A stretch of DNA of 12,304 nt from Promethearchaeia archaeon (GCA_046497275.1 JAWOFX010000085.1:1-12304), one strand, 5' to 3'. Numbered from the stretch's first letter, positions 1,655-12,304 are shown. Numbers and translations are program-made. Notes: generated from the letters alone by a model not told the origin.

Positions 1655-2569
1655 ATGAGGAATAAGCATATTTTAATTTCCGCTAAGTGCGATATACCGT
1701 TAATAAAGAATATAATAAAAAAATTAGAAGATATAAATGGACTTAGGTTGGATTATCATGATCCTATTAAAGATTCCATAAACTTAAAAGGCTTTTACCA
1801 AAAATTGAAAGACTATGATTTAATTATTACTAAAGTGGGAGGGGAATCCTCCATTGATTTGCTGTATATGGCGAAATTATTTAATATTCATACTATTAAT
1901 AACTTATCATCAATATTACTATGTAAGAATAAAATAGCTTTAGATAGCGCTTTAAGGAATGCATTTGAAAAGCATAAAAAAGACATAAAAGATTTTAATC
2001 TCCCAAATTCTTGGATACATCCATCTCCTCTTAAAGATTTGAAACATTTTAAGGATTGGGCAACTCCAAAATTGCCACTTGTTTTTAAAAGCCATGATCA
2101 ACATAATGAGTTCTTTAGATTTAATTTTTTAGCAAGAGACCGAAATGAAATTGACGATTTTATTTTATCTAAAAAAGATTTTCTTTATTTCGACTTATAT
2201 ATTCAAGAATTTATTGAGTGTGATGGGATAGATCGAAAAGTATATGTTATTGGAGATAAAATGTATGGGGTTCAGAGAGAAAATCCAATTTATATATACT
2301 TGAGAGAGAAGCCTGAATCTATTAATGTGGAGGAGATTGAGAGAAAATCATTCATATTAGATGATAATATAAAAAATTTAAGCAAAATCCTATCGAAAGA
2401 ATTAAATCTCAATATTTTCGGTTTTGATCTAGTCAAACCTCTCCATAAAACTGGATACTATTTACTTGATTTAAATGATTTTCCAGGATTTAGAGGGATA
2501 AAAGGCATAGATCAAGTAATCGTAGAATATATTCTAGATTATTTACAAGAACTTGAAAATAAAAAGTAG
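1655..2569 (+). CDS. ATP-grasp protein, ITPK1 (inositol 1,3,4-trisphosphate 5/6-kinase)-like; RimK-like ligase is the alternative
   Basis: 304 aa. Motifs DLIITKV, PLVFKS, IQEFIECDGIDRKVYVIGD, QRENP and NIFGFDLV...YYLLDLNDFPGF. The D-x-N-x-FPG and K-V-Y-V-I-G motifs fit ITPK1 better than RimK (E-V-N; D-I-R). No SD, so possibly leaderless. Confidence 0.7.
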   Translation: MRNKHILISAKCDIPLIKNIIKKLEDINGLRLDYHDPIKDSINLKGFYQKLKDYDLIITKVGGESSIDLLYMAKLFNIHTINNLSSILLCKNKIALDSALRNAFEKHKKDIKDFNLPNSWIHPSPLKDLKHFKDWATPKLPLVFKSHDQHNEFFRFNFLARDRNEIDDFILSKKDFLYFDLYIQEFIECDGIDRKVYVIGDKMYGVQRENPIYIYLREKPESINVEEIERKSFILDDNIKNLSKILSKELNLNIFGFDLVKPLHKTGYYLLDLNDFPGFRGIKGIDQVIVEYILDYLQELENKK

Positions 2570-2582
2570 ACCGAATCTAAAT

Positions 2583-3431
2583 CTAAAAAACTATTAAGAA
2601 AGGTAAAATGATTAAAAAGGCTATTAGGCCATATCCTATACAGAAATAACCAAAATTAATCTTTTTTGCTAGTCCTAATAGTATCTCAATTGTCAGATAT
2701 CCTACTATAAAACTAACTATTGTTGAGATTAATATTGTAAAGATATCTAAAGTTCCAAAAACGGACCCACTTCCAAAAAGAATATCTGCTCCGATTGAAC
2801 CTAGAACTGCTGGTACAGAAATAAGAAAACTTAATTTCAATGCTTCGTCTTGGTTATATTTTTGAAATAATAGTGAAGACACCGTTATTCCTGATCGAGA
2901 CACACCTGGCAATATAGATATCCCTTGTGCTAAACCTGTAATTAAACTTTCTGAATGAAAAAAATCCTCTGAGAGTTTATATAATTCTTTTTTTCCAGTT
3001 TGTTTTTTAGCAATAAGGATTATTATACCAATAACAATTAATAGCCCCGCAATAATCAACGTTAATATATCTCCTTGAGTTGAATTAAAATAATTTTCTA
3101 AAACTATTTTGAAAATGAAGTAAAGAGGGAGTGCAGTGAGTGCAGTTCCAATAGTAGCTAAAATTACCCAATTTCTTTCTATGATAGTATCAGATTCTAT
3201 TTCTCGATTTTTATGAGGGATCAACGATCTAAATATCTTATAATAGTTATTTCGATATCTAAGTATCACAGCAAACATCGTTCCTAAATGTAGCCAAATA
3301 GCTAAGCTAAATGCTTCATTAGAACTGATTCCAAATAAATTAATGGATATAATCATCACCTGACCCGAGGAAGATATGGGCAACCATTCGAACAAACCCT
3401 GTAAAATCGCAATTATAATATATTCTATCAT
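2583..3431 (-). CDS. uppP: Undecaprenyl/polyprenyl-diphosphate phosphatase (BacA family)
   Basis: 282 aa membrane protein with both BacA signatures: QGLFEWLPISSSG and AQGISILPGVSRSGIT. Confidence 0.92.
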   Translation of the reverse strand: MIEYIIIAILQGLFEWLPISSSGQVMIISINLFGISSNEAFSLAIWLHLGTMFAVILRYRNNYYKIFRSLIPHKNREIESDTIIERNWVILATIGTALTALPLYFIFKIVLENYFNSTQGDILTLIIAGLLIVIGIIILIAKKQTGKKELYKLSEDFFHSESLITGLAQGISILPGVSRSGITVSSLLFQKYNQDEALKLSFLISVPAVLGSIGADILFGSGSVFGTLDIFTILISTIVSFIVGYLTIEILLGLAKKINFGYFCIGYGLIAFLIILPFLIVF

Positions 3432-3469
3432 GAACTATTCTATTCCTATATTTTTGATGGCTACAACTA

Positions 3470-3967
3470 TCATAAATCATCTGGAAACCATTTTCTCAAT
3501 CCTTTTAAAAGACAATCCTTTATCTCATCCCTTGCTTTTCTAAATCCTTCTATTCCTTTCATTGAGGGATCTTCGATATCTCCATATTCTCCCGCAAATT
3601 CTTTTAAAGTAAAAATATCTCCATCGTATTTATCTAACAATCCATTAAGATCATATAGTTCTTTCTTATGATTTTGAGTAAGTGTCAAAATTAAATCTGT
3701 ATTTTCTACTATTTTTGGATGTTTCTTTAAATCAATTGATTTAGAGTCTTCGGGTAAATGTATGCCCTCCTCTTTCATAACTAACTTCGCATCAAGAGAA
3801 ATTAACATTCCATCCCGGGCATTAGATGAAATACCGCACGAATTAACCTTAATATCTAAGGAAAGTAGGGTAGAAAAATGTGATAGATATCCTTTTGCGA
3901 TTGGACTTCGTGCCGTGTTTACACTACACACAACTAAGATTGATTTATAAGGGAAATTTCCTACCAT
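3470..3967 (-). CDS. Low-molecular-weight protein phosphatase (LMW-PTP / YwlE-like)
   Basis: 165 aa. P-loop VCSVNTARSP (C-x5-R-S), DLILTLTQNHK segment, and the general-acid DIEDP motif. Confidence 0.85.
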   Translation of the reverse strand: MVGNFPYKSILVVCSVNTARSPIAKGYLSHFSTLLSLDIKVNSCGISSNARDGMLISLDAKLVMKEEGIHLPEDSKSIDLKKHPKIVENTDLILTLTQNHKKELYDLNGLLDKYDGDIFTLKEFAGEYGDIEDPSMKGIEGFRKARDEIKDCLLKGLRKWFPDDL

Positions 3968-4084
3968 TTAGATAATTCTCAAACATTAATTTAAAATTCA
4001 ATTCTCTTAATTTTAGATAAAAGTAGCTTAAAAAATAAATTTGTCATCCAAATTTTAGGGAACAGAGAGAATTGATCGATAAAA

Positions 4085-4100
4085 TAAAAAATAAAAAGAA
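4085..4100 (-). terminator. Putative T-rich terminator of pncA
   Basis: A-rich tract on + (TTCTTTTTATTTTTTA on -) about 20-35 nt after the pncA stop. Confidence 0.35.
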
Positions 4101-4121
4101 GTTTTAAACAAATTCATTTTA

Positions 4122-4805
4122 TTATTTAAAAAAACTTGTTGTATTAAGAAATTTGACGCCTATATTATCCATATCTTCTAATGCGTTTGAAACACTTCCT
4201 TTTGGGTCATCTATTCCTTTTGTTAAATCTAATATCAAAAAGACCTCAAACCCAAATTCTATTGCATCGATTGCAGAATAATAGCAGCAATAATCCAACG
4301 CTAACCCCGAGATAAATACTCTTTTTATCCCCAGATCTTTTAATAATCCTTTTAAGCCCGTTTCTTTCTTCTTAAGCTGGTCTCTAAATGCAGAATAAGA
4401 ATCTACTTCAGGATCCATGCCTTTTCGTATTATCGCTCTAGCTAACTTTATATCTAAATCCTTATGAAATTCTGCTCCTTTTGTTCCTTGAACACAATGA
4501 TCAGGCCAAAGAACTGGACCAATTCCCTCTCCATGAAATTCATCTCCAGGCTGTTTTCCCGGGTGATTACTTGCAAATGATTTATCATTTGAAGGATGCC
4601 AATCTTGAGTTTGAATTATAGATGCTCCCTTTTTATCGAAAAGATTACCTATTTCATTTATCCCACTAATAATCTCGTCTCCGCCTTCCACAGCCAATGC
4701 ACCTCCAGGGAGGAAATCATACTGCATATCAACTATAATAAGAACATCATCTTTTGTAATTTTAATGTTTTTTTTAATTTCTACATCATTAATATCCAAT
4801 TTCAA
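4122..4805 (-). CDS. pncA: Nicotinamidase/pyrazinamidase (isochorismatase family)
   Basis: 227 aa. Motifs IVDMQYDFLPGGALAV, QDWHP, LWPDHCVQGT, IRKG...DSYSAF and GLALDYC (catalytic Asp/Lys/Cys). The start is TTG at 4805, or the second TTG at 4799, which is better spaced from GAGGT. Confidence 0.92.
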   Translation of the reverse strand: MKLDINDVEIKKNIKITKDDVLIIVDMQYDFLPGGALAVEGGDEIISGINEIGNLFDKKGASIIQTQDWHPSNDKSFASNHPGKQPGDEFHGEGIGPVLWPDHCVQGTKGAEFHKDLDIKLARAIIRKGMDPEVDSYSAFRDQLKKKETGLKGLLKDLGIKRVFISGLALDYCCYYSAIDAIEFGFEVFLILDLTKGIDDPKGSVSNALEDMDNIGVKFLNTTSFFK

Positions 4806-5098
4806 GACCTCAGATTTAATTTATAATTATCTATTAACTAGCATTATTTTCTTATAAATAGATTATTCCTTTTAAAACTAAAATCTTTATCTTTAAATTT
4901 ATAAATTAAAAATAGAAAAAGCACATATTTTAACAATTTATTAAAATTTTTTGCATTAGCATATAAATTAAAGATTGTTATTTCCTTTGATTAATATATC
5001 TCTCTGAAATGCTTAAAATTTATTAAAATAAAGTATTTTTATTATTTAATTATCAATATAGATCATAACACTACATAAATAAGAGAAAGTGTATTAAA
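4806..5098. promoter_or_regulatory. Divergent promoter region for pncA and the ATPase operon
   Basis: 293-bp extremely AT-rich intergenic region between divergent genes, with several TATA-like elements (e.g. TTTATTAA at 4937 and 5019). The exact promoters are not resolved. Confidence 0.5.
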
Positions 5099-5443
5099 TT
5101 GAATGGAAAAAAAAAATTTTATTTATTATTAGCAATATTTCAAGTATTTTTGGCTTTTTCGGTATTTTTTTCGGTGGACGGAATAATAAATTTTGTAGCG
5201 GCTCAAGGAGAAACTTATGACTCGATGACAATTTCCGTATTCGCAATTTCCGCAGCTATTGCTGTTAGCTCAGCTGTTTTAGGAAGTGCTTGGGCAATAA
5301 GAACAACTGGAACAGCAGCAATCTCTGCCTTGTCAGAGCGAGAGGGTTCCTTTTTCCAAGCATTTTTAGTTGTAGCGCTTTGTGAAGCATTAGCGATTTA
5401 TGGACTAATTATAGCTATTTTGTTATGGACTAAGATACCATAA
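5099..5443 (+). CDS. atpK: A/V-type ATP synthase subunit K (c, proteolipid), single hairpin with N-terminal leader
   Basis: 114 aa. C-terminal helix FLVVALCEALAIYGLIIAILL carries the ion-binding Glu. Extra hydrophobic N-terminal segment ends in VAA-Q. TTG start 6 nt after AGTGT. Confidence 0.92.
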   Translation: MNGKKKFYLLLAIFQVFLAFSVFFSVDGIINFVAAQGETYDSMTISVFAISAAIAVSSAVLGSAWAIRTTGTAAISALSEREGSFFQAFLVVALCEALAIYGLIIAILLWTKIP

Positions 5444-5490
5444 GCCTCTTTTAAAAAAGATTTAAAAATTAAATTATCTCTTAAAACATT

Positions 5491-5495
5491 GGTGA
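5491..5495 (+). promoter_or_regulatory. Shine-Dalgarno (GGTGA) of atpC
   Basis: Perfect GGTGA core 6 nt upstream of an in-frame ACG at 5502. Confidence 0.7.
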
Positions 5496-5501
5496 AATCA
5501 T

Positions 5502-6560
5502 ACGAGTAGTGCGATTATTGTTCCTTCTTACGCGTACACATATGTCAAGATTGGATTTTTAAAGAAATTGATTATGGAATCCTCTGTCTTAGATAAATTG
5601 GATAAAATAAATGATATTCGAGACTTTATTAATGAAATTAAACCTTATTATCCCGATTTAGATATAAAACAATACACTATTGAAGAAATTGAGAAAAATC
5701 TTTACAATATTTATATCAATTTAATTGGTAGGATTATCTCGTACTCTCCTGAGAATATGGGAAATTTCTTAAAAGATTACTTAATAAAATATGAAATCCT
5801 TAACTTGAAACAAATTATATTAGGGTCAATAATTGGATTAACTAAAGAAGAAAAAAAACAAAATGTAAATTTTTTAGTTCAAAGATATTTAGAAAATGAA
5901 GATTTCATGAAGGATTTAGTAAAAGTCTCTTCTTTAGATGAGATAAGATTATCTTTAAGAGATACACGCTACTATAAAGCTGTCAGGGAAGGCATACTAT
6001 ATTTTAGGAATAATAATGAAATCTTTGTATTAGAATCTTTCTTAGATCAACTATATTATAAAAATCTTGTTAAAAAGCGTAAAAATCTTAATAAATATGA
6101 AGAAAAAATGATTGGTTTATTTACAAAATATATTACTGAAATCTATAATATTAATATGATTTATAGAGGTATTATAAATAATATTGATAAAAAGCTGCTG
6201 TCCCAATTTCTAGTAAATAGTTATCTTTTTTTAGATTCTAAGTTAGTAGAAAATTTATTAGCTCAAACAGAAATTATAGATTTTTTTGATTATCTAAATT
6301 CTATTTTATCAAAATCAAATGATATAAAACATTTATATAAGAAACTTTCCAATGATATGGACCATCCCATTTGGGAATTAGAAAGGATTTATCAAAAATT
6401 CTATTTTAAAGAATTTGAACTACAAATAGATAATATAGATTATTCAACAATATATCGGATTTTTGAAGTAATTATTAAAAAGGAGAAAGAAATTAAATTT
6501 GAAATTCTGCCTAATATAGTTAGGATTATTCATAAGAAATTTCAAATATTTGAAAAATAA
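5502..6560 (+). CDS. atpC: A/V-type ATP synthase subunit C (V0 d-like); proposed ACG start, 352 aa
   Basis: The frame is open upstream of the ORF-track TTG (5568) and reads (M)SSAIIVPSYAYTYVKIGFLKKLIM, resembling the subunit C N-terminal YAY.NAR....K.KL motif. Also contains YEILNLKQII and EIYNINMIYRG, and the operon position fits. Confidence 0.82.
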   Translation, partial: TSSAIIVPSYAYTYVKIGFLKKLIMESSVLDKLDKINDIRDFINEIKPYYPDLDIKQYTIEEIEKNLYNIYINLIGRIISYSPENMGNFLKDYLIKYEILNLKQIILGSIIGLTKEEKKQNVNFLVQRYLENEDFMKDLVKVSSLDEIRLSLRDTRYYKAVREGILYFRNNNEIFVLESFLDQLYYKNLVKKRKNLNKYEEKMIGLFTKYITEIYNINMIYRGIINNIDKKLLSQFLVNSYLFLDSKLVENLLAQTEIIDFFDYLNSILSKSNDIKHLYKKLSNDMDHPIWELERIYQKFYFKEFELQIDNIDYSTIYRIFEVIIKKEKEIKFEILPNIVRIIHKKFQIFEK

Positions 6561-6582
6561 ATCATAAAGATGGGTTAAAAAA

Positions 6583-6894
6583 ATGAGTATTTTTAATTGG
6601 GTAAAAGATATAGAGGAAACTTATGATGAATTAATAGAAAAAACACAAGATGAGAATGAGTCTGAACTCAACAAATTAAAGGAGCAAGAAGAAACAAATC
6701 TTAAACAAACATTAGATGAGAAAAGAAACTTTATAGAAAGAGTTTTAAATGAATTAAAACAAGATATAGATTTTAGGATTTCAAATTTTAAGCAAAAAAT
6801 AGATAAAGAAATAGAGAAAACTGAAAAGGATTATAAGAGTAACCAAGACCAAATTATAAAACAAGTCTTATCAGATATAGGAGTTGATTTTTAA
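6583..6894 (+). CDS. atpH: A/V-type ATP synthase subunit H (G-like peripheral stalk)
   Basis: 103 aa, highly charged predicted coiled coil, with the size and position expected for the stalk subunit. Little motif-level evidence. Confidence 0.7.
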   Translation: MSIFNWVKDIEETYDELIEKTQDENESELNKLKEQEETNLKQTLDEKRNFIERVLNELKQDIDFRISNFKQKIDKEIEKTEKDYKSNQDQIIKQVLSDIGVDF

Positions 6895-7217
6895 TGTCTG
6901 AACAAGGAAAAATACATATAATAGGTTATGATGAATTGGTTATTTTGATGGGCCTTTTAGGAATTGAAGGAACGCTAGTTGATGATTCCAATAAATTTAT
7001 GGACATTTTTGAAAAATTGACTCAAAACCCAGCAATAAGTGTTATATTAATTGCTATGGATTTACCTGATGATATAATTGATTATTTAATAGATTTTAAA
7101 ATAAATACATCTAAACCATTTATTTATCTTATACCAGATATTTTCCAGAAAGGAATTGATGAAAGGAGTGTATTTTTAAAAAAAATTTATAAACAGAAAG
7201 GTAAATTATTGCCTTAA
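6894..7217 (+). CDS. atpF: A/V-type ATP synthase subunit F
   Basis: 107 aa. KIHIIGYDELVILMGLLGIEG resembles the KIAVIGD...GF.LAGI motif, and PFIYLIPD is present. GGAGTTGA + 6 nt + ATG; TAATG overlap with atpH. Confidence 0.85.
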   Translation: MSEQGKIHIIGYDELVILMGLLGIEGTLVDDSNKFMDIFEKLTQNPAISVILIAMDLPDDIIDYLIDFKINTSKPFIYLIPDIFQKGIDERSVFLKKIYKQKGKLLP

Positions 7218-7955
7218 TTGGTGATTAAAATTTCGGATAAAAAAATAAATCTAAAATCTCAGTTTGGGAAGTTAGGAATGCATTTAATTGACCAAGCAAA
7301 AGATAAAATAAAAGATCTAAATCAAGAAATGTTATTCCGTAAGGCAGAAATAAAGAAAAGGTATAGAAATCGATTAGATTTAAAATCCGATCAAATTAGA
7401 AAGGGATTTATTGAGGATTACAATAATAGTTTAAATAAAAATTTATCTTCAACTCTTTTAGAATCAAAAGAAAGGATATTAGAATTAAAAAACAATTTAA
7501 TTAAATTATTTATTAAAGATTTAAGAGAAGAAATTAAGAAAAGGATAAATAGTAATTACAAAGGTTATGTTCAATATCTCTTAGATATAATTGATAATAT
7601 TAAAAATAAGGATAATTTACCAAAAAATTCAATTCTTTATTTTAATGAAAGAGATATGGATTACTTTCGAAAAAATATAGAGAAAATAAAAAATATTGTG
7701 AATAATGAATTTCAAATTAAAAAAGAACTAAAAATTGAGATTGGTGGATTTATTTTAGAACAAGATGATGGAGAAATTTCATTTGATTACACTATTGATA
7801 ATACTATAGAAGAAAACTATTCTAAAATTGAGATGAACTTTTCAAATATAATAAAAGATACAGAAATAAAAAAGCTCCAAAAAGAATTCGAAGAATTTGT
7901 TAATCAGAAAAAAAAAAATATAGGAGATTATTTGATTGACTATGACAGAATCTGA
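7218..7955 (+). CDS. atpE: A/V-type ATP synthase subunit E
   Basis: Helical N-terminal half, then a globular domain with IGGFILEQDDGEISFDYTID (typical GG.I......I..D.T motif). The start is TTG 7218 or possibly ATT 7230. Confidence 0.85.
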   Translation: MVIKISDKKINLKSQFGKLGMHLIDQAKDKIKDLNQEMLFRKAEIKKRYRNRLDLKSDQIRKGFIEDYNNSLNKNLSSTLLESKERILELKNNLIKLFIKDLREEIKKRINSNYKGYVQYLLDIIDNIKNKDNLPKNSILYFNERDMDYFRKNIEKIKNIVNNEFQIKKELKIEIGGFILEQDDGEISFDYTIDNTIEENYSKIEMNFSNIIKDTEIKKLQKEFEEFVNQKKKNIGDYLIDYDRI

Positions 7956-9780
7956 AAAAAATAATAAAGGATATATCTCTGAAATTAATGGATCATTAAT
8001 CACAGTTAAAGGTTTAGAAGATCAAGTTAGACTTCATGATTTAATTAAAGTAAATAAACAAAATCTAATAGGAGAAATAATACAGATCTATAGTGATAGG
8101 ATAAGTGTTCAATGTTTTGAAGCTACAGATAATTTAAAATTAAAGGAGGAAGTTACCTATTTAAAGGAACCCTTATCAATGGAATTAGGTCCTGGGTTAC
8201 TTTCAAATATTTTTGATGGAATCCAAAGACCTTTAGATAAAATTTTCGAGCTCGAAAAATCAGGTTTTATTCCCAGAGGGATTGATATTTCCGCATTAGA
8301 TAGAGAAAAGAAATGGCATTTTACTCCTACTAAAAAAGTTGATCAAGAAGTAAATGCTGGAGATGTGATCGGAGTGGTACAAGAAACTCCAGCAATCTCC
8401 CATTTTATAATGGTGCATCCTTCTATTAATGGGACTCTTTCTTTTATCAAAAAAGAAGGAGAATATACTGTAGATGAAGATCTTTATAAAATAGACGTAA
8501 ATGGTAATGAAAAAACATTTAACATGATACAAAAATGGTCTGTAACGAAAAGCCGACCTTTTTTCAAGAGATTAACTCCCAATGAACCTTTAATTACAGG
8601 ACAACGAGTGATAGATTTATTATTTCCAGTCGCCAAGGGAGGAACAGTTGCGGTTCCAGGAGGTTTCGGAACAGGGAAAACTGTGCTTCAGCAGTCTATA
8701 GCTAAATGGTCTGATGCAGATATAATAGTTTTTGTTCATTGTGGAGAAAGGGGAAATGAAGTTGCTGATTTATTAAGACAATTTCCTGAACTCGAGGATC
8801 CACGAACAGGAAGACCTTTATTAGAAAGAACGATCCTAATTACGAATACATCTAATATGCCCGTTTCTGCTCGTGAAGCAAGTATCTTTTCTGGTATAAC
8901 AATAGCAGAATATTATAGAGATATGGGATATAATGTTGCTTTACAAGCAGACAGTACTTCTCGATGGGCAGAAGCTCTCAGAGAAATATCTGGCCTATTA
9001 GAAGAGATGCCCGCCGAGGGTGGTTATCCTGCCTATTTAGCTTCTCGCCTCTCGAGCTTTTTTGAAAGAGCTGGAGTAATTGAGGTTATAGGAGAACAAG
9101 AAAATAAAAAGAGTAAATATGGTTCTTTAACAGTTATTGGTTCAGTTTCTCCTCCAGCAGGAGATTTTAGTGAACCCGTTACTTCAAATACTAAAAGATT
9201 TGTTCAAACTTTTTGGGCACTTGATGCTGAATTAGCATATGAGAAACATTACCCAGCAATTAACTGGCTTGAGTCATATTCAAACTATCCAAGTTATATT
9301 AGAAAATGGTGGAATCAAAACGTTAAAATCGATTGGTCCGAAATAGATATCGATTGGTTTAAATGTAGGAATAGAGTAAATCAAATATTATCACGAGAAA
9401 ATGAACTAAAAAATATGACTCAATTAGTGGGTGAGGAAAATCTCCCCGAATTACAACAACTTGATCTCTTTATTGCTAATTTGATTAAAGAAGCTTTCCT
9501 TATTCAGAATGCTTTTGATGATATCGATAATTTTACTTCTACAGAAAAAAATATTGCCCTTATTAAACTCATTCTTCTTCTCCATCAAGAGGCGGAGGAA
9601 TTGATAACACAAGGTTATATTATCAAAGATATTAAGGATTTAGAAGTTATCGATAAAATAAAAAGAGTAAAGAATACCATATCTAATGAAGATATAAATG
9701 AAATCGAAGATATCAAAGATAAGTTATTAAATCAAATAGATTCCTTAAAAAAATCTTATGGAGTCGTGAAAAGTTATTGA
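7942..9780 (+). CDS. atpA: A/V-type ATP synthase catalytic subunit A
   Basis: Walker A GGFGTGKT, CGERGNE, NTSNMPVSAREASI, DSTSRWAEALREISG, EEMPAEGGYPAYL and SPPAGDFSEPVT. No intein. ATG 7942 is preferred; TTG 7936 is possible. Confidence 0.97.
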   Translation: MTESEKNNKGYISEINGSLITVKGLEDQVRLHDLIKVNKQNLIGEIIQIYSDRISVQCFEATDNLKLKEEVTYLKEPLSMELGPGLLSNIFDGIQRPLDKIFELEKSGFIPRGIDISALDREKKWHFTPTKKVDQEVNAGDVIGVVQETPAISHFIMVHPSINGTLSFIKKEGEYTVDEDLYKIDVNGNEKTFNMIQKWSVTKSRPFFKRLTPNEPLITGQRVIDLLFPVAKGGTVAVPGGFGTGKTVLQQSIAKWSDADIIVFVHCGERGNEVADLLRQFPELEDPRTGRPLLERTILITNTSNMPVSAREASIFSGITIAEYYRDMGYNVALQADSTSRWAEALREISGLLEEMPAEGGYPAYLASRLSSFFERAGVIEVIGEQENKKSKYGSLTVIGSVSPPAGDFSEPVTSNTKRFVQTFWALDAELAYEKHYPAINWLESYSNYPSYIRKWWNQNVKIDWSEIDIDWFKCRNRVNQILSRENELKNMTQLVGEENLPELQQLDLFIANLIKEAFLIQNAFDDIDNFTSTEKNIALIKLILLLHQEAEELITQGYIIKDIKDLEVIDKIKRVKNTISNEDINEIEDIKDKLLNQIDSLKKSYGVVKSY

Positions 9781-11159
9781 GTGTCAGCTATAAAAAGATT
9801 ACACAAATAATAGGACCTCTTATTTTTTTAAAAAACCATCATGATGTTCAATATGGTGAAATGGTAAAAATAAGAATAGATGAGGGGGAGACAAGAAATG
9901 GGGAAGTCATTCGAATGGATGAAAATGTAATCCTTATCGAGGTATTCGAAGATACTAAAGGGCTCTCCGCAGTTAACTCAGAAATAAATTTTACCAAGGA
10001 TACTTTTAAATTAAAAATTTCAAAGGATATGTTTGGAGCTACCTTTAATTCATTCGGAAAACCTATTGATATTGAAACTAGAAAAATTTTGAAAAACGAT
10101 ATTTTACCCGAAGTTAAACGTGATATTAATAGTATTCCTATTAATCCTTATGCTCGAGATTACCCCACAAATATTATCCAAACGGGGATTTCTGCTATTG
10201 ATGGATTGTTTACATTGATTAGAGGACAAAAATTACCAATCTTTAGTGGACAAGGACTTAATCATAATGAATTGGCAGCTCAAATTGTTACTCAGGCGAA
10301 AGTTTTAACAGAAGAACCATTTCTCATAATTTTTTGTGGTATAGGAGTAATTCAAGATCAAGCAATTTCATTTATTGATCGCTTTAAAGAAAGCGGAAAT
10401 ATACAAAACATAATTTCTTTCATCAATTTTGCTGATGATCCAGTAATGGCGAGATTAATGATCCCTCATGTTGCTTTAACTACCGCAGAATTTTTTGCAT
10501 TCGAAAAAGATATGCATGTGTTAGTAGTTTTAGTCGACATAACTAACTATGCCGAAGCCTTAAGAGAACTTAGTTTAGCAAAAGAAGAGATACCAAGTAG
10601 AAAAGGATATCCGGGACATATATATACAGACTTTGCAAAAATCTATGAAAGAACGGGATTAATAAAAGGAAAAAGTGGGTCAGTTACTCAAATCCCGATT
10701 TTAACAATGCCAAATGATGATATAAGTCATCCTATACCAGATACTTCAGGATATATTACAGATGGACAGCTTGTGTTGGACCGTGATCTTTATAAAAAAG
10801 AAGTCTATCCTCCATTTGAAGTTTTAGCTTCTATTTCTCGATTAATGAAAGATGCGATTGGAAAGGATACAACAAGAGAAGATCATGCTGATGTAAGTTC
10901 TCAGTTAATAGCATCTTATTCTAATGCTCTGGATGTTAGAGATTTAGTCTCAATCGTAGGAGAAGATAGTTTAAATAATGATCAAAGATCCTTACTTAAA
11001 TTTGCTGATGCGTTTGAAAATAAATTCATAAACCAAGGTTTGGAAGAAGAAAGAACTTTTGAAGATACTTTCTCCATTGCATGGGAAATATTATCAAAGT
11101 TAGATAAAAATCAGTTAAGTAGGATTCATCAAGAATATATAGATAAATATTATGTTTAA
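9777..11159 (+). CDS. atpB: A/V-type ATP synthase subunit B
   Basis: 460 aa. TGISAIDG..TLIRGQKLPIFSG, DITNYAEALRE, RKGYPG, QIPILTMPNDDISHPIPD and SISRLMK. TTG start overlaps the atpA stop. Confidence 0.97.
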   Translation: MSVSYKKITQIIGPLIFLKNHHDVQYGEMVKIRIDEGETRNGEVIRMDENVILIEVFEDTKGLSAVNSEINFTKDTFKLKISKDMFGATFNSFGKPIDIETRKILKNDILPEVKRDINSIPINPYARDYPTNIIQTGISAIDGLFTLIRGQKLPIFSGQGLNHNELAAQIVTQAKVLTEEPFLIIFCGIGVIQDQAISFIDRFKESGNIQNIISFINFADDPVMARLMIPHVALTTAEFFAFEKDMHVLVVLVDITNYAEALRELSLAKEEIPSRKGYPGHIYTDFAKIYERTGLIKGKSGSVTQIPILTMPNDDISHPIPDTSGYITDGQLVLDRDLYKKEVYPPFEVLASISRLMKDAIGKDTTREDHADVSSQLIASYSNALDVRDLVSIVGEDSLNNDQRSLLKFADAFENKFINQGLEEERTFEDTFSIAWEILSKLDKNQLSRIHQEYIDKYYV

Positions 11160-11160
11160 A

Positions 11161-11165
11161 GGTGA
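11161..11165 (+). promoter_or_regulatory. Shine-Dalgarno (GGTGA) of atpD
   Basis: Perfect GGTGA one base after the atpB stop and 6 nt upstream of an in-frame ACG at 11172. Confidence 0.7.
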
Positions 11166-11171
11166 AATTGA

Positions 11172-11822
11172 ACGTCATTTCGGGAAATAAAACCAACAAA
11201 AAGTAATTTATTAGATTTGGAAGATAAATTAGATTTTGTAGAAAAAGGAAAAGACTTTTTAGATTATAAAAGAACACAACTAGTTGATCAGATACGAAAT
11301 ATCTGGACGAATTATAAAAATCAACATAAGAAATCTTTTGGAATGATTCAAGAAGCCATGTCTAATTTAAATGAATCATACAAGGAACAAGGAAAACAAA
11401 GTGTAAATCTAATTAGTATGATGGGAAGAATTCAATATAAACCTAGGATTGAGTTAAAGTATTCGAAAAAAATGGGAATCGCAATACCAAGACTTGAATT
11501 GGAATTTGAAAAAGAAGAAAAATTACCTCCATATTCATTTACTAATACAAGCAAACATTTAGATAACTTAATGAGAATTTTAAAAAATATGTTTGAACAA
11601 ATGATATTATTAGCAGAAACTGAGGATGTATTAATAAAATATGCCTTCAATTTCCAAAAAGTAAATAGGAGGATACAAGGATTAAAGAATGTGATTAAGC
11701 CTCAAATAGAATCTGATATTAAAAAAATTGAACGAATTTTAGAGGAAACTGAACGTGAGAACTTTACACGCTTAAAGAAAACCAAAGATATGATTAAAAC
11801 CAAGGAGAAAAATATATGGTGA
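11172..11822 (+). CDS. atpD: A/V-type ATP synthase subunit D; proposed ACG start, 216 aa
   Basis: Upstream of the ORF-track TTG (11217) the frame reads (M)SFREIKPTKSNLLDLEDKL..., matching the conserved subunit D N-terminus (xKPTRxxLxxLK...G.xLL..KR). C-terminal KVNRRIQGLKNVIKP...LEETERENFTRLKKTK. Confidence 0.9.
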   Translation, partial: TSFREIKPTKSNLLDLEDKLDFVEKGKDFLDYKRTQLVDQIRNIWTNYKNQHKKSFGMIQEAMSNLNESYKEQGKQSVNLISMMGRIQYKPRIELKYSKKMGIAIPRLELEFEKEEKLPPYSFTNTSKHLDNLMRILKNMFEQMILLAETEDVLIKYAFNFQKVNRRIQGLKNVIKPQIESDIKKIERILEETERENFTRLKKTKDMIKTKEKNIW

Positions 11823-11831
11823 AAATAAGAT

Positions 11832-12304
11832 ATGGCTAAAATGACTTTGTTTAATATAATCATACAAAAAATTCTCAAAGATAGCATTTTAATGAATTTA
11901 GCAAATCAAAAAATAGTTCATATAAAGGAAAAAGAGAAAGAAAAAATAAAAGAAGAAAAAGAGGAATATAAAGAGAATATTAAAGATTTACGCCAAAATT
12001 TAGAAGATCTCTTTAAAAAATTAAATATAGCAAAATCCGAATTCCAAGCTTTACATTTAGAAAAGGATGAGAAAAAGGAATTCAGGGTGAAAGATTTATA
12101 TGAATTAATTCACCAAGTTACAGATGAAATTAATTTCTATATGAATCGGATTAATGAATTAGAGCGATATATTAATAAAGCAACTCTAGAATTAGAAAAT
12201 ATTAATGAAATCAATTCAGCTTATACATTCTTAAATAAATATGAATTTAATCGAAAACATTTACGTTATTTTGATGAGTTAGATATAAAAACTTATATCA
12301 CTTA
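11832..12304 (+). CDS. atpI: A/V-type ATP synthase subunit I (a), N-terminal part; runs off the window
   Basis: Not in the ORF track. My translation: MAKMTLFNIIIQKILKDSILMNLANQKIVHIKEKEKEKIKEEK... with no stop to the window end. It matches the subunit I start pattern (M.KM...I.....D..L..L.....VHI) followed by coiled coil. GGTGA at 11818-11822. Confidence 0.85.
   Translation, partial: MAKMTLFNIIIQKILKDSILMNLANQKIVHIKEKEKEKIKEEKEEYKENIKDLRQNLEDLFKKLNIAKSEFQALHLEKDEKKEFRVKDLYELIHQVTDEINFYMNRINELERYINKATLELENINEINSAYTFLNKYEFNRKHLRYFDELDIKTYIT

Follow-up and report, generated by a model that had tools for sequence, protein, structure and literature searches.

The genes atpC and atpD, which encode subunits C and D of an A/V-type ATPase on a 12,304-nucleotide contig of a Promethearchaeia archaeon (GCA_046497275.1, JAWOFX010000085.1:1-12304; hereafter "the window", which is the entire contig C139), are probably translated from ACG codons, by near-cognate initiation that is guided by a Shine-Dalgarno (SD) sequence and employs the ordinary initiator Met-tRNA. 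In both genes the ACG would most likely serve as a weak start that escapes gene finders. Judged from genome comparison, ACG appears to be one of several near-cognate starts used by the host lineage, together with ATT, ATA, ATC and CTG. A preliminary description of the window, made from its sequence alone, had inferred ACG initiation and regarded RNA editing as less likely; all comparisons that we ran agree with it, and the ACG codons stand where orthologues have ATG or TTG.

The two ACG sites

The elements concerned are the following:

5491 to 5495, plus strand: SD sequence GGTGA of atpC, pairing with the 16S rRNA tail ..GAUCACCUCC
5502 to 5504, plus strand: putative ACG start codon of atpC, from aligned codons in 80 species
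5502 to 6560, plus strand: atpC, A/V-ATPase subunit C (eukaryotic d), 352 codons (PF01992)
11160 to 11165, plus strand: SD sequence AGGTGA of atpD, abutting the atpB stop codon TAA at 11157-11159
11172 to 11174, plus strand: putative ACG start codon of atpD, from the alignment of orthologue codons
11172 to 11822, plus strand: atpD, central-stalk subunit D, 216 codons (PF01813, residues 12-205)

Both sites read as previously described. In atpC, GGTGA (5491-5495) and AATCAT precede ACG 5502 and AGT (GGTGAAATCAT-ACG-AGT, 5491-5507); in atpD, GGTGA (11161-11165) and AATTGA precede ACG 11172 and TCA (GGTGAAATTGA-ACG-TCA, 11161-11177). Eight bases, GGTGAAAT, are common to the two sites, and a Ser codon follows each ACG. 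The frames are closed upstream by in-frame TGA (5493-5495 in atpC; 11169-11171 and also 11163-11165 in atpD), and the first in-frame ATG, GTG or TTG is TTG 5568 in atpC, 22 codons on, and TTG 11217 in atpD, 15 codons on. Neither gene contains a single ATG, GTG or TTG in the stretch from the in-frame stop to the point where conserved N-terminal coding sequence begins. GGTGA is the usual archaeal SD sequence, because the 16S rRNA terminates in GGATCACCTCCTA, the 3' end found in the host genome.

Read from ACG, the predicted N-termini are (M)SSAIIVPSYAYTYVK for atpC and (M)SFREIKPTK for atpD. The atpC product matches PF01992 over residues 30-332 with 80.9 bits (cut-off 29; E 1.4e-22), and the atpD product matches PF01813 over profile positions 1-195 with 124.9 bits (E 4.7e-36). 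The segments that a canonical start would skip are conserved, as had been claimed, and their changes are mostly synonymous, which implies selection at the protein level: codons 2-24 of atpC show five synonymous changes and one non-synonymous change against a 93%-identical strain, and codons 2-11 of atpD show five synonymous and no non-synonymous changes against the closest relative genome (G002). In the solved structure of Thermus subunit D (PDB 3a5c_G), residue 3 is the counterpart of atpD residue 5; a PDB sequence search with atpC, family profile included, gave no match.

The claim that a gap of 6 nt also precedes canonical starts in the window holds only loosely. It applies to the MFS gene (AGTGA-N6-ATG) and to atpK (AGTGT-N6-TTG) but not to atpF or to ATG 7942 of atpA, where a GGAG core sits 10 nt and 15 nt upstream, respectively; for atpA, TTG 7936 is better suited. 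Three other ways of accounting for the two sites were considered and rejected. An alternative genetic code in which TGA is read as Trp or Gly is at odds with atpA and atpB, which are intact under table 11, and the TGA codons opened in this way reveal no upstream start. A start at the GTG inside the SD sequence, combined with a frameshift, has no support, GTG 5492 and GTG 11162 being out of frame and followed by a stop after 5 and 14 codons. For a mini-intron with a bulge-helix-bulge motif or a hairpin at the starts, folding was no more structured than in shuffled controls (z +1.26 and +0.12).

The first codon of atpC among relatives

Eighty named species with atpC were gathered with the family profile. 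At the codon aligned to ACG 5502, 64 of them carry ACG, 11 ATG and four TTG, and one case is unclear; none of the 80 has ACA, ACT or ACC there, and ACG is the rarest Thr codon of the host genome (10.4%). The codons next to the atpC ACG vary synonymously (AGT/AGC, CCT/CCC/CCA). Since the codon is exchanged with ATG and TTG and lacks synonymous Thr variants, its behaviour is that of a start, not of a Thr codon. For atpC, the alignment of orthologues that the preliminary description had proposed as a check shows that ACG is kept or alternates with ATG and TTG, never with another Thr codon.

As these relatives are related genomes and statistically non-independent samples, the number of switches on a tree is the fairer statistic. 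A maximum-likelihood tree of the atpC proteins, from which the first codon was left out, requires 11 interchanges between ACG and a canonical start, at least nine of them forced by well-supported branches. In the set from the same family (n = 22, including the host) ACG occurs in 15 or 16 genomes, ATG in five and TTG in one, and the aligned codon is often preceded by TAA, TAG or TGA, either immediately or at a distance of one to two codons. Upstream of the start, at 6-7 nt, the 80 loci keep a GGTG-type or purine-rich element. In the next family of the order, including a 4.4-Mb single-contig genome, codon 1 is ATG. The atpC ACG is thus old and family-wide, and it has been maintained while the proteins diverged to about 50% identity.

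The first codon of atpD among relatives

The N-terminus xSFREIKPTK is conserved from codon 2 onwards in all 30 atpD loci, many of which have an in-frame stop at most three codons upstream. Codon 1 is variable: in 20 genomes of the same family it is ATT in nine, ATG in seven, ATA in two and ATC in two; in more distant genomes of the order it is ATG or GTG, and in G002 it is ATG. Among the assemblies examined, ACG was confined to the host genome and two contigs from metagenomes (Ga0209918_1000051 and Ga0102944_1000177), in which 5-7% of bases differ from the window and which both read ...AAAGGTGAAATTGAACGTCA.... One of these two contigs, together with a Logan contig of the same strain, retains the atpC ACG behind an altered spacer, GGTGAAAGCAA-ACG. 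An assembly error is excluded, because the ACG codons persist in independent assemblies that are 5-7% diverged (atpD) and, in atpC, in 64 other species. For atpD, the alignment check shows ATG, GTG, ATT, ATA and ATC at the start position of relatives, and ACG, among the assemblies examined, in one species-level clade.

On this evidence the atpD ACG is a recent ATG-to-ACG change that reached fixation in a species-level clade; in most of the family the site has weak start codons anyway. One could also regard it as a recent, slightly deleterious mutation of ATG or as the mark of a decaying gene, and not as an adapted start. Its confinement to one species-level clade among the genomes searched and the ATG of G002 are in line with such an origin, which we nevertheless judge very improbable: atpD is intact and differs from the gene of G002 through synonymous changes, the codon is fixed in three assemblies 5-7% apart, and 13 of 20 family members have weak codons (ATT, ATA or ATC) at the same site. 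To atpC this explanation is inapplicable.

Putative near-cognate starts elsewhere in the genome

In about 20 genomes of the family, the orthologues of atpK, the H-like gene, atpF and atpI start with ATG and in a few cases with TTG or GTG (atpK: ATG 17/20, TTG 2/20; H-like gene: ATG 17/20), and in this comparison of the operon near-cognate codons were found only in C and D.

Near-cognate starts also occur outside the operon. A scan anchored on all SD variants was too noisy for ACG and was clean only for one class, in which a long open reading frame (ORF) begins 6 nt after GGTGA and its frame is closed by the TGA within the same GGTGA. The genome scan for such sites, as suggested in the preliminary description, yielded as first codons ATT in 17 cases, ATG in 15, TTG in 14, GTG and ATA in five each, and ACG in three. 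At other in-frame spacings from GGTGA, ATT reaches only 1-4. The N6 spacing is enriched genome-wide for ATG, TTG and ATT, and the same spacing is present at both ACG sites.

A comparison of the host with its closest relative gives an estimate of the frequency of such starts. In a first pass of the comparison with G002, 87 pairs were flagged, mostly antisense shadow ORFs and conserved promoters; hence a length filter (at least 150 residues) and curation by hand were applied. In the resulting 146 orthologue pairs, which represent a single genome pair and 391 kb of the relative, a near-cognate start is required in about nine, with ACG in atpC and atpD, ATT in six genes and ATA in one. All nine have an SD sequence of GGTGA or GGAGG type 4-8 nt upstream, usually shortly past an in-frame stop, and in three of the nine the relative carries ATG at the aligned codon.

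Two further starts lie outside this sample. The third ACG start belongs to a small Cys-rich protein of 162 aa (C118:25095-25580, minus strand; L221) and reads AGGTGA-N6-ACG; the aligned codon is the TTG of AGGTGA-N6-TTG in G002 and ATG in other relatives. A CTG start behind AGGAG-N6 opens an HExxH membrane protease of about 824 aa (C69:112380, plus strand; L197); this CTG aligns with the ATG or TTG of relatives, and G002 has a TAA directly before its own CTG. An ACG candidate at C69:112386 proved to be wrong, the aligned start being the CTG two codons upstream, and the presumed ATA start of RNase HII belongs to an exon after a mini-intron and is no start.

Four further near-cognate sites were noted in passing, at C180:28798 (plus strand), in a minus-strand ORF at C127 20435-21515, at C127:39494 (plus strand) and in an ORF on C59 from 8817 (plus strand). 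A small GTPase-like gene and another of these have ATT where G002 has ATG; in both genomes one of the remaining two has ATT and the other ATA. All four starts lie behind GGTGA, just past an in-frame stop. Another ORF on C59 (8293-8824, plus strand) has a 5' end that is identical in the host and in G002 and opens right after a stop, apparently midway through an ABC-ATPase domain and 32 codons ahead of any canonical start; the gene may be split, or may contain a mini-intron or a recoding site.

These data bear on two other explanations. The first places initiation at a near-cognate codon shortly downstream, ATT 5514 or 5517 in atpC and ATA 11187 in atpD, with the ACG being merely the first sense-like codon past the stop. 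ATT and ATA are indeed the commoner near-cognate starts in the genome, and they are present 4-5 codons past both ACGs. Such starts would, however, lie 18-21 nt from the SD sequence, as opposed to 4-8 nt for all other SD-led starts examined; the codons are unconserved, several relatives reading ACG AGT GTT CCA GTT with no ATT, ATA or ATC; and it is the position of the ACG that matches the ATG or TTG of other species exactly. We consider a downstream start improbable.

The second explanation is that C-to-U editing of the RNA turns ACG into AUG in the mRNA, as it does in plant organelles. The strict conservation of the genomic ACG at the start position and its interchange with ATG by the same single transition speak for editing. 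Non-ATG starts are not confined to editable ACG, however: ATT, ATA, ATC and CTG occupy start positions in atpD, in the gene for the initiation factor aIF1 and in other genes, and C-to-U editing cannot make AUG of them. Near-cognate initiation is therefore needed anyway, and editing becomes unnecessary. Apart from the SD sequence, moreover, the ACG sites showed neither a conserved structure nor a flanking motif, and we know of no C-to-U editing of mRNA in archaea. Editing thus appears extremely unlikely.

aIF1 and the initiator tRNA

The sole SUI1/aIF1 gene of the genome (C118:66911-67231, plus strand; L143) has a TGA three codons before ATT-AGT; a start at the first canonical codon would sever the CPVCG zinc knuckle. 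Across 21 genomes of the family, ATT or ATC occupies this position with few exceptions, in most genomes behind an in-frame stop, whereas neighbouring families have TTG, GTG, ATG or ATA. An AUU start in the gene of the factor that proofreads start codons suggests a feedback on stringency and may amount to autoregulation.

A pattern search found one initiator-type tRNA, with anticodon CAT, a GGG/CCC anticodon stem and an acceptor end of the A1:U72 type. This tRNA (C34 about 10990-11075, plus strand; 3' end CCCCGCTACCA) has no D-arm that could be recognised immediately 5' of the anticodon stem; the tRNA is probably either split or interrupted by an intron in a non-canonical place. The same kind of search of the genome, for which the tRNA inventory is incomplete, found no initiator-type anticodon arm with CGT.

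It could be argued that a dedicated device reads ACG, be it an additional initiator tRNA (anticodon CGU) or a lineage-specific alteration of aIF1, aIF2 or rRNA that makes ACG fully cognate. The unusually strict retention of the atpC ACG over a long divergence is compatible with such a reader, and the incomplete detection of tRNAs in the host genome leaves it some room. On the other side, the initiator-type anticodon arm with its GGG/CCC stem was found only in the CAT version, and the GGTGA-N6 class has three cases of ACG to 17 of ATT, a rarity that one would expect of a tolerated mismatch and not of a second cognate codon. A dedicated reader is in our opinion scarcely credible.

A proposed model of SD-guided initiation at ACG

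We favour initiation at the ACG codons by the ordinary machinery. The SD sequence would pair with the 3' end of the 16S rRNA and set the small subunit in such a way that the ACG occupies the P site; there the codon would be accepted, despite the mismatch at the middle position, by the ordinary initiator Met-tRNA (anticodon CAU). The proteins would start with Met-Ser and would probably be trimmed to Ser. Initiation at ACG would be weaker than at AUG, which would keep the output of C and D low relative to their neighbours in the operon. In the case of atpD, whose ACG lies 12 nt past the atpB stop, ribosomes that have just terminated may help. More generally, the lineage seems to be tolerant of AUU, AUA, AUC, CUG and ACG starts behind strong SD sequences.

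It is plausible that the weak starts would limit C and D, since only these two carry weak codons while K, H, F and I keep ATG in about 20 relatives; a lower output would fit their single copy per complex. A wider version holds that the family runs a relaxed and tunable stringency, in which a few percent of genes start at ACG, AUU, AUA, AUC or CUG, in each case following a strong SD sequence, aIF1 sets its own level via AUU, and weak starts set the subunit ratios within operons, that of the A-ATPase among them. We offer this only tentatively, as a conceivable extension that is on balance doubtful.

Several points speak against SD-guided initiation at ACG. The rationale based on stoichiometry is incomplete, as the single-copy subunits F and I use ATG. 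For all genomes concerned, the case is built from comparison of DNA sequences, and in the data consulted the members of the ACG-bearing family all appear to be uncultured. The detection of tRNAs was incomplete (19 with ARAGORN, 26 with Rfam; many tRNAs carry introns), which leaves a special initiator a small probability. Finally, ACG is not among the established archaeal starts, and a review of archaeal initiation gives AUG, GUG and UUG as the only start codons (PMC7531240).

Comparison with known systems

Near-cognate initiation has precedents of several kinds. In eukaryotes ACG is a classic near-cognate start, and examples from eukaryotic viruses include VP2 of adeno-associated virus and the C' protein of Sendai virus. 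The likeness is that the initiator Met-tRNA takes one mismatch, that the output is lower than from AUG, and that context and proofreading of the eIF1/aIF1 type matter. In contrast to scanning and a Kozak context, however, the codon would here be positioned by an SD sequence 6 nt upstream in a polycistronic operon, and it would be the sole start of an essential housekeeping gene, conserved across an archaeal family.

In bacteria, infC, the gene of IF3, starts with AUU and is under translational autocontrol, and pcnB likewise starts with AUU; to our knowledge, ACG is not among the established bacterial starts. With infC the archaeal genes share a weak start that is conserved, presumably for dosage control, and a weakly started gene for a fidelity factor (here aIF1, with ATT). 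aIF1 is, however, a homologue of eIF1 and is unrelated to IF3, and the feedback we suggest here is only inferred. Plant organelles create AUG starts from ACG by C-to-U editing (psbL, ndhD). There, too, a genomic ACG stands at a conserved start and interchanges with ATG among species, but the ATT, ATA, ATC and CTG starts that co-occur in the archaeal genomes could not be repaired by C-to-U editing.

Among archaea, ribosome profiling of Haloferax volcanii found that about 30% of the putative alternative initiation sites mapped with harringtonine were near-cognate; the authors discounted these as potential false positives, and the main text makes no mention of ACG (PMC7261190). The Haloferax sites resemble ours in being archaeal and near-cognate, but they are secondary sites and not the conserved sole starts of core genes. 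SD sequences are described as not prevalent in the cultured Lokiarchaeon (PMC7531240). Our searches of the literature brought up no publication that describes Asgard genes starting at ACG or AUU.

The operon and its genome

The host genome comprises 3.85 Mb in 188 contigs with 30.4% G+C. In a collection of species representatives, the named contigs related to the window all come from metagenome-assembled genomes of Promethearchaeota (Lokiarchaeota), with isolate BC3 as the nearest; the host is therefore no bacterium but an Asgard archaeon of the Lokiarchaeia within the Promethearchaeota. According to the Pfam assignments, the A/V-type ATPase operon lies on the plus strand of the window. Besides atpC and atpD it contains the following genes:

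5099 to 5443, plus strand: atpK, proteolipid c subunit, TTG start (PF00137, E 5.6e-14)
6583 to 6894, plus strand: small coiled-coil subunit, H/G-like, ATG start; assigned from its position in the operon, no Pfam match above cut-off
6894 to 7217, plus strand: atpF, ATG start (PF01990)
7218 to 7955, plus strand: atpE, TTG start (PF01991)
7936 to 9780, plus strand: atpA, start at TTG 7936 or ATG 7942 (PF00006, PF16886, PF22919)
9777 to 11159, plus strand: atpB, TTG start overlapping the atpA stop (PF00006, PF22919)
11832 to 12302, plus strand: 5' part of a probable atpI (a subunit), ATG start, leaving the contig; assigned from its position after atpD

The atpI fragment of 157 aa gave no Pfam match; its orthologues begin at ATG.

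Two observations concern other parts of the window. The atpA genes of strains that are 93-95% identical carry an in-frame insertion of 1.6 kb at about window position 8678, which is absent from the atpA of the window (L193, reverse complement, about 4171-5793; L194, about 2543-4165; also L246). The insertion has the hallmarks of an intein, with Cys as its first residue and His-Asn as its last, and the called product matches the Pfam families Intein_splicing and LAGLIDADG_3. Upstream of the operon, positions 1655-2569 (plus strand) encode a protein of 304 aa with an ATP-grasp domain of the inositol 1,3,4-trisphosphate 5/6-kinase type (PF05770, E 9.6e-13); this family is known chiefly from eukaryotes.

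Consequences for annotation

The preliminary description had predicted that standard gene callers would truncate both proteins, and for atpC this is what databases contain: the entries for isolate BC3 (NCBI) and for the 93%-identical strain (JGI, Logan) are 328 aa long and start with MESS or MDPS. The listed atpC proteins are bimodal, 37 of 120, the entries just named among them, being given without the N-terminal YxY motif. Another 26 of the 120 begin upstream, most of them at a GTG or TTG inside the SD sequence, and the remainder begin with MS(V/I)IVPSY and have true ATG starts. Public annotations thus drop about 23 residues or start inside the SD sequence, and about 6% of the sampled genes could be mis-called in a similar manner. 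Such mis-called starts affect structure prediction, the prediction of N-terminal signals and pangenome statistics for Asgard metagenome-assembled genomes.

Significance for archaeal initiation

Neither NCBI table 11 nor the archaeal literature that we searched lists ACG as a start. Asgard archaea are the closest known prokaryotic kin of eukaryotes. If our reading is true, an essential subunit of the ATP synthase would have a conserved ACG for its sole start, which would extend the rules of archaeal initiation, and would do so in the lineage closest to eukaryotes. The ACG starts, together with an aIF1 that starts with ATT, provide a testable hypothesis on how the control of start-codon stringency evolved. 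Should the reading of a relaxed stringency also be true, near-cognate initiation and the autoregulation of eIF1 in eukaryotes would have a counterpart among prokaryotes in these archaea, and perhaps a forerunner.

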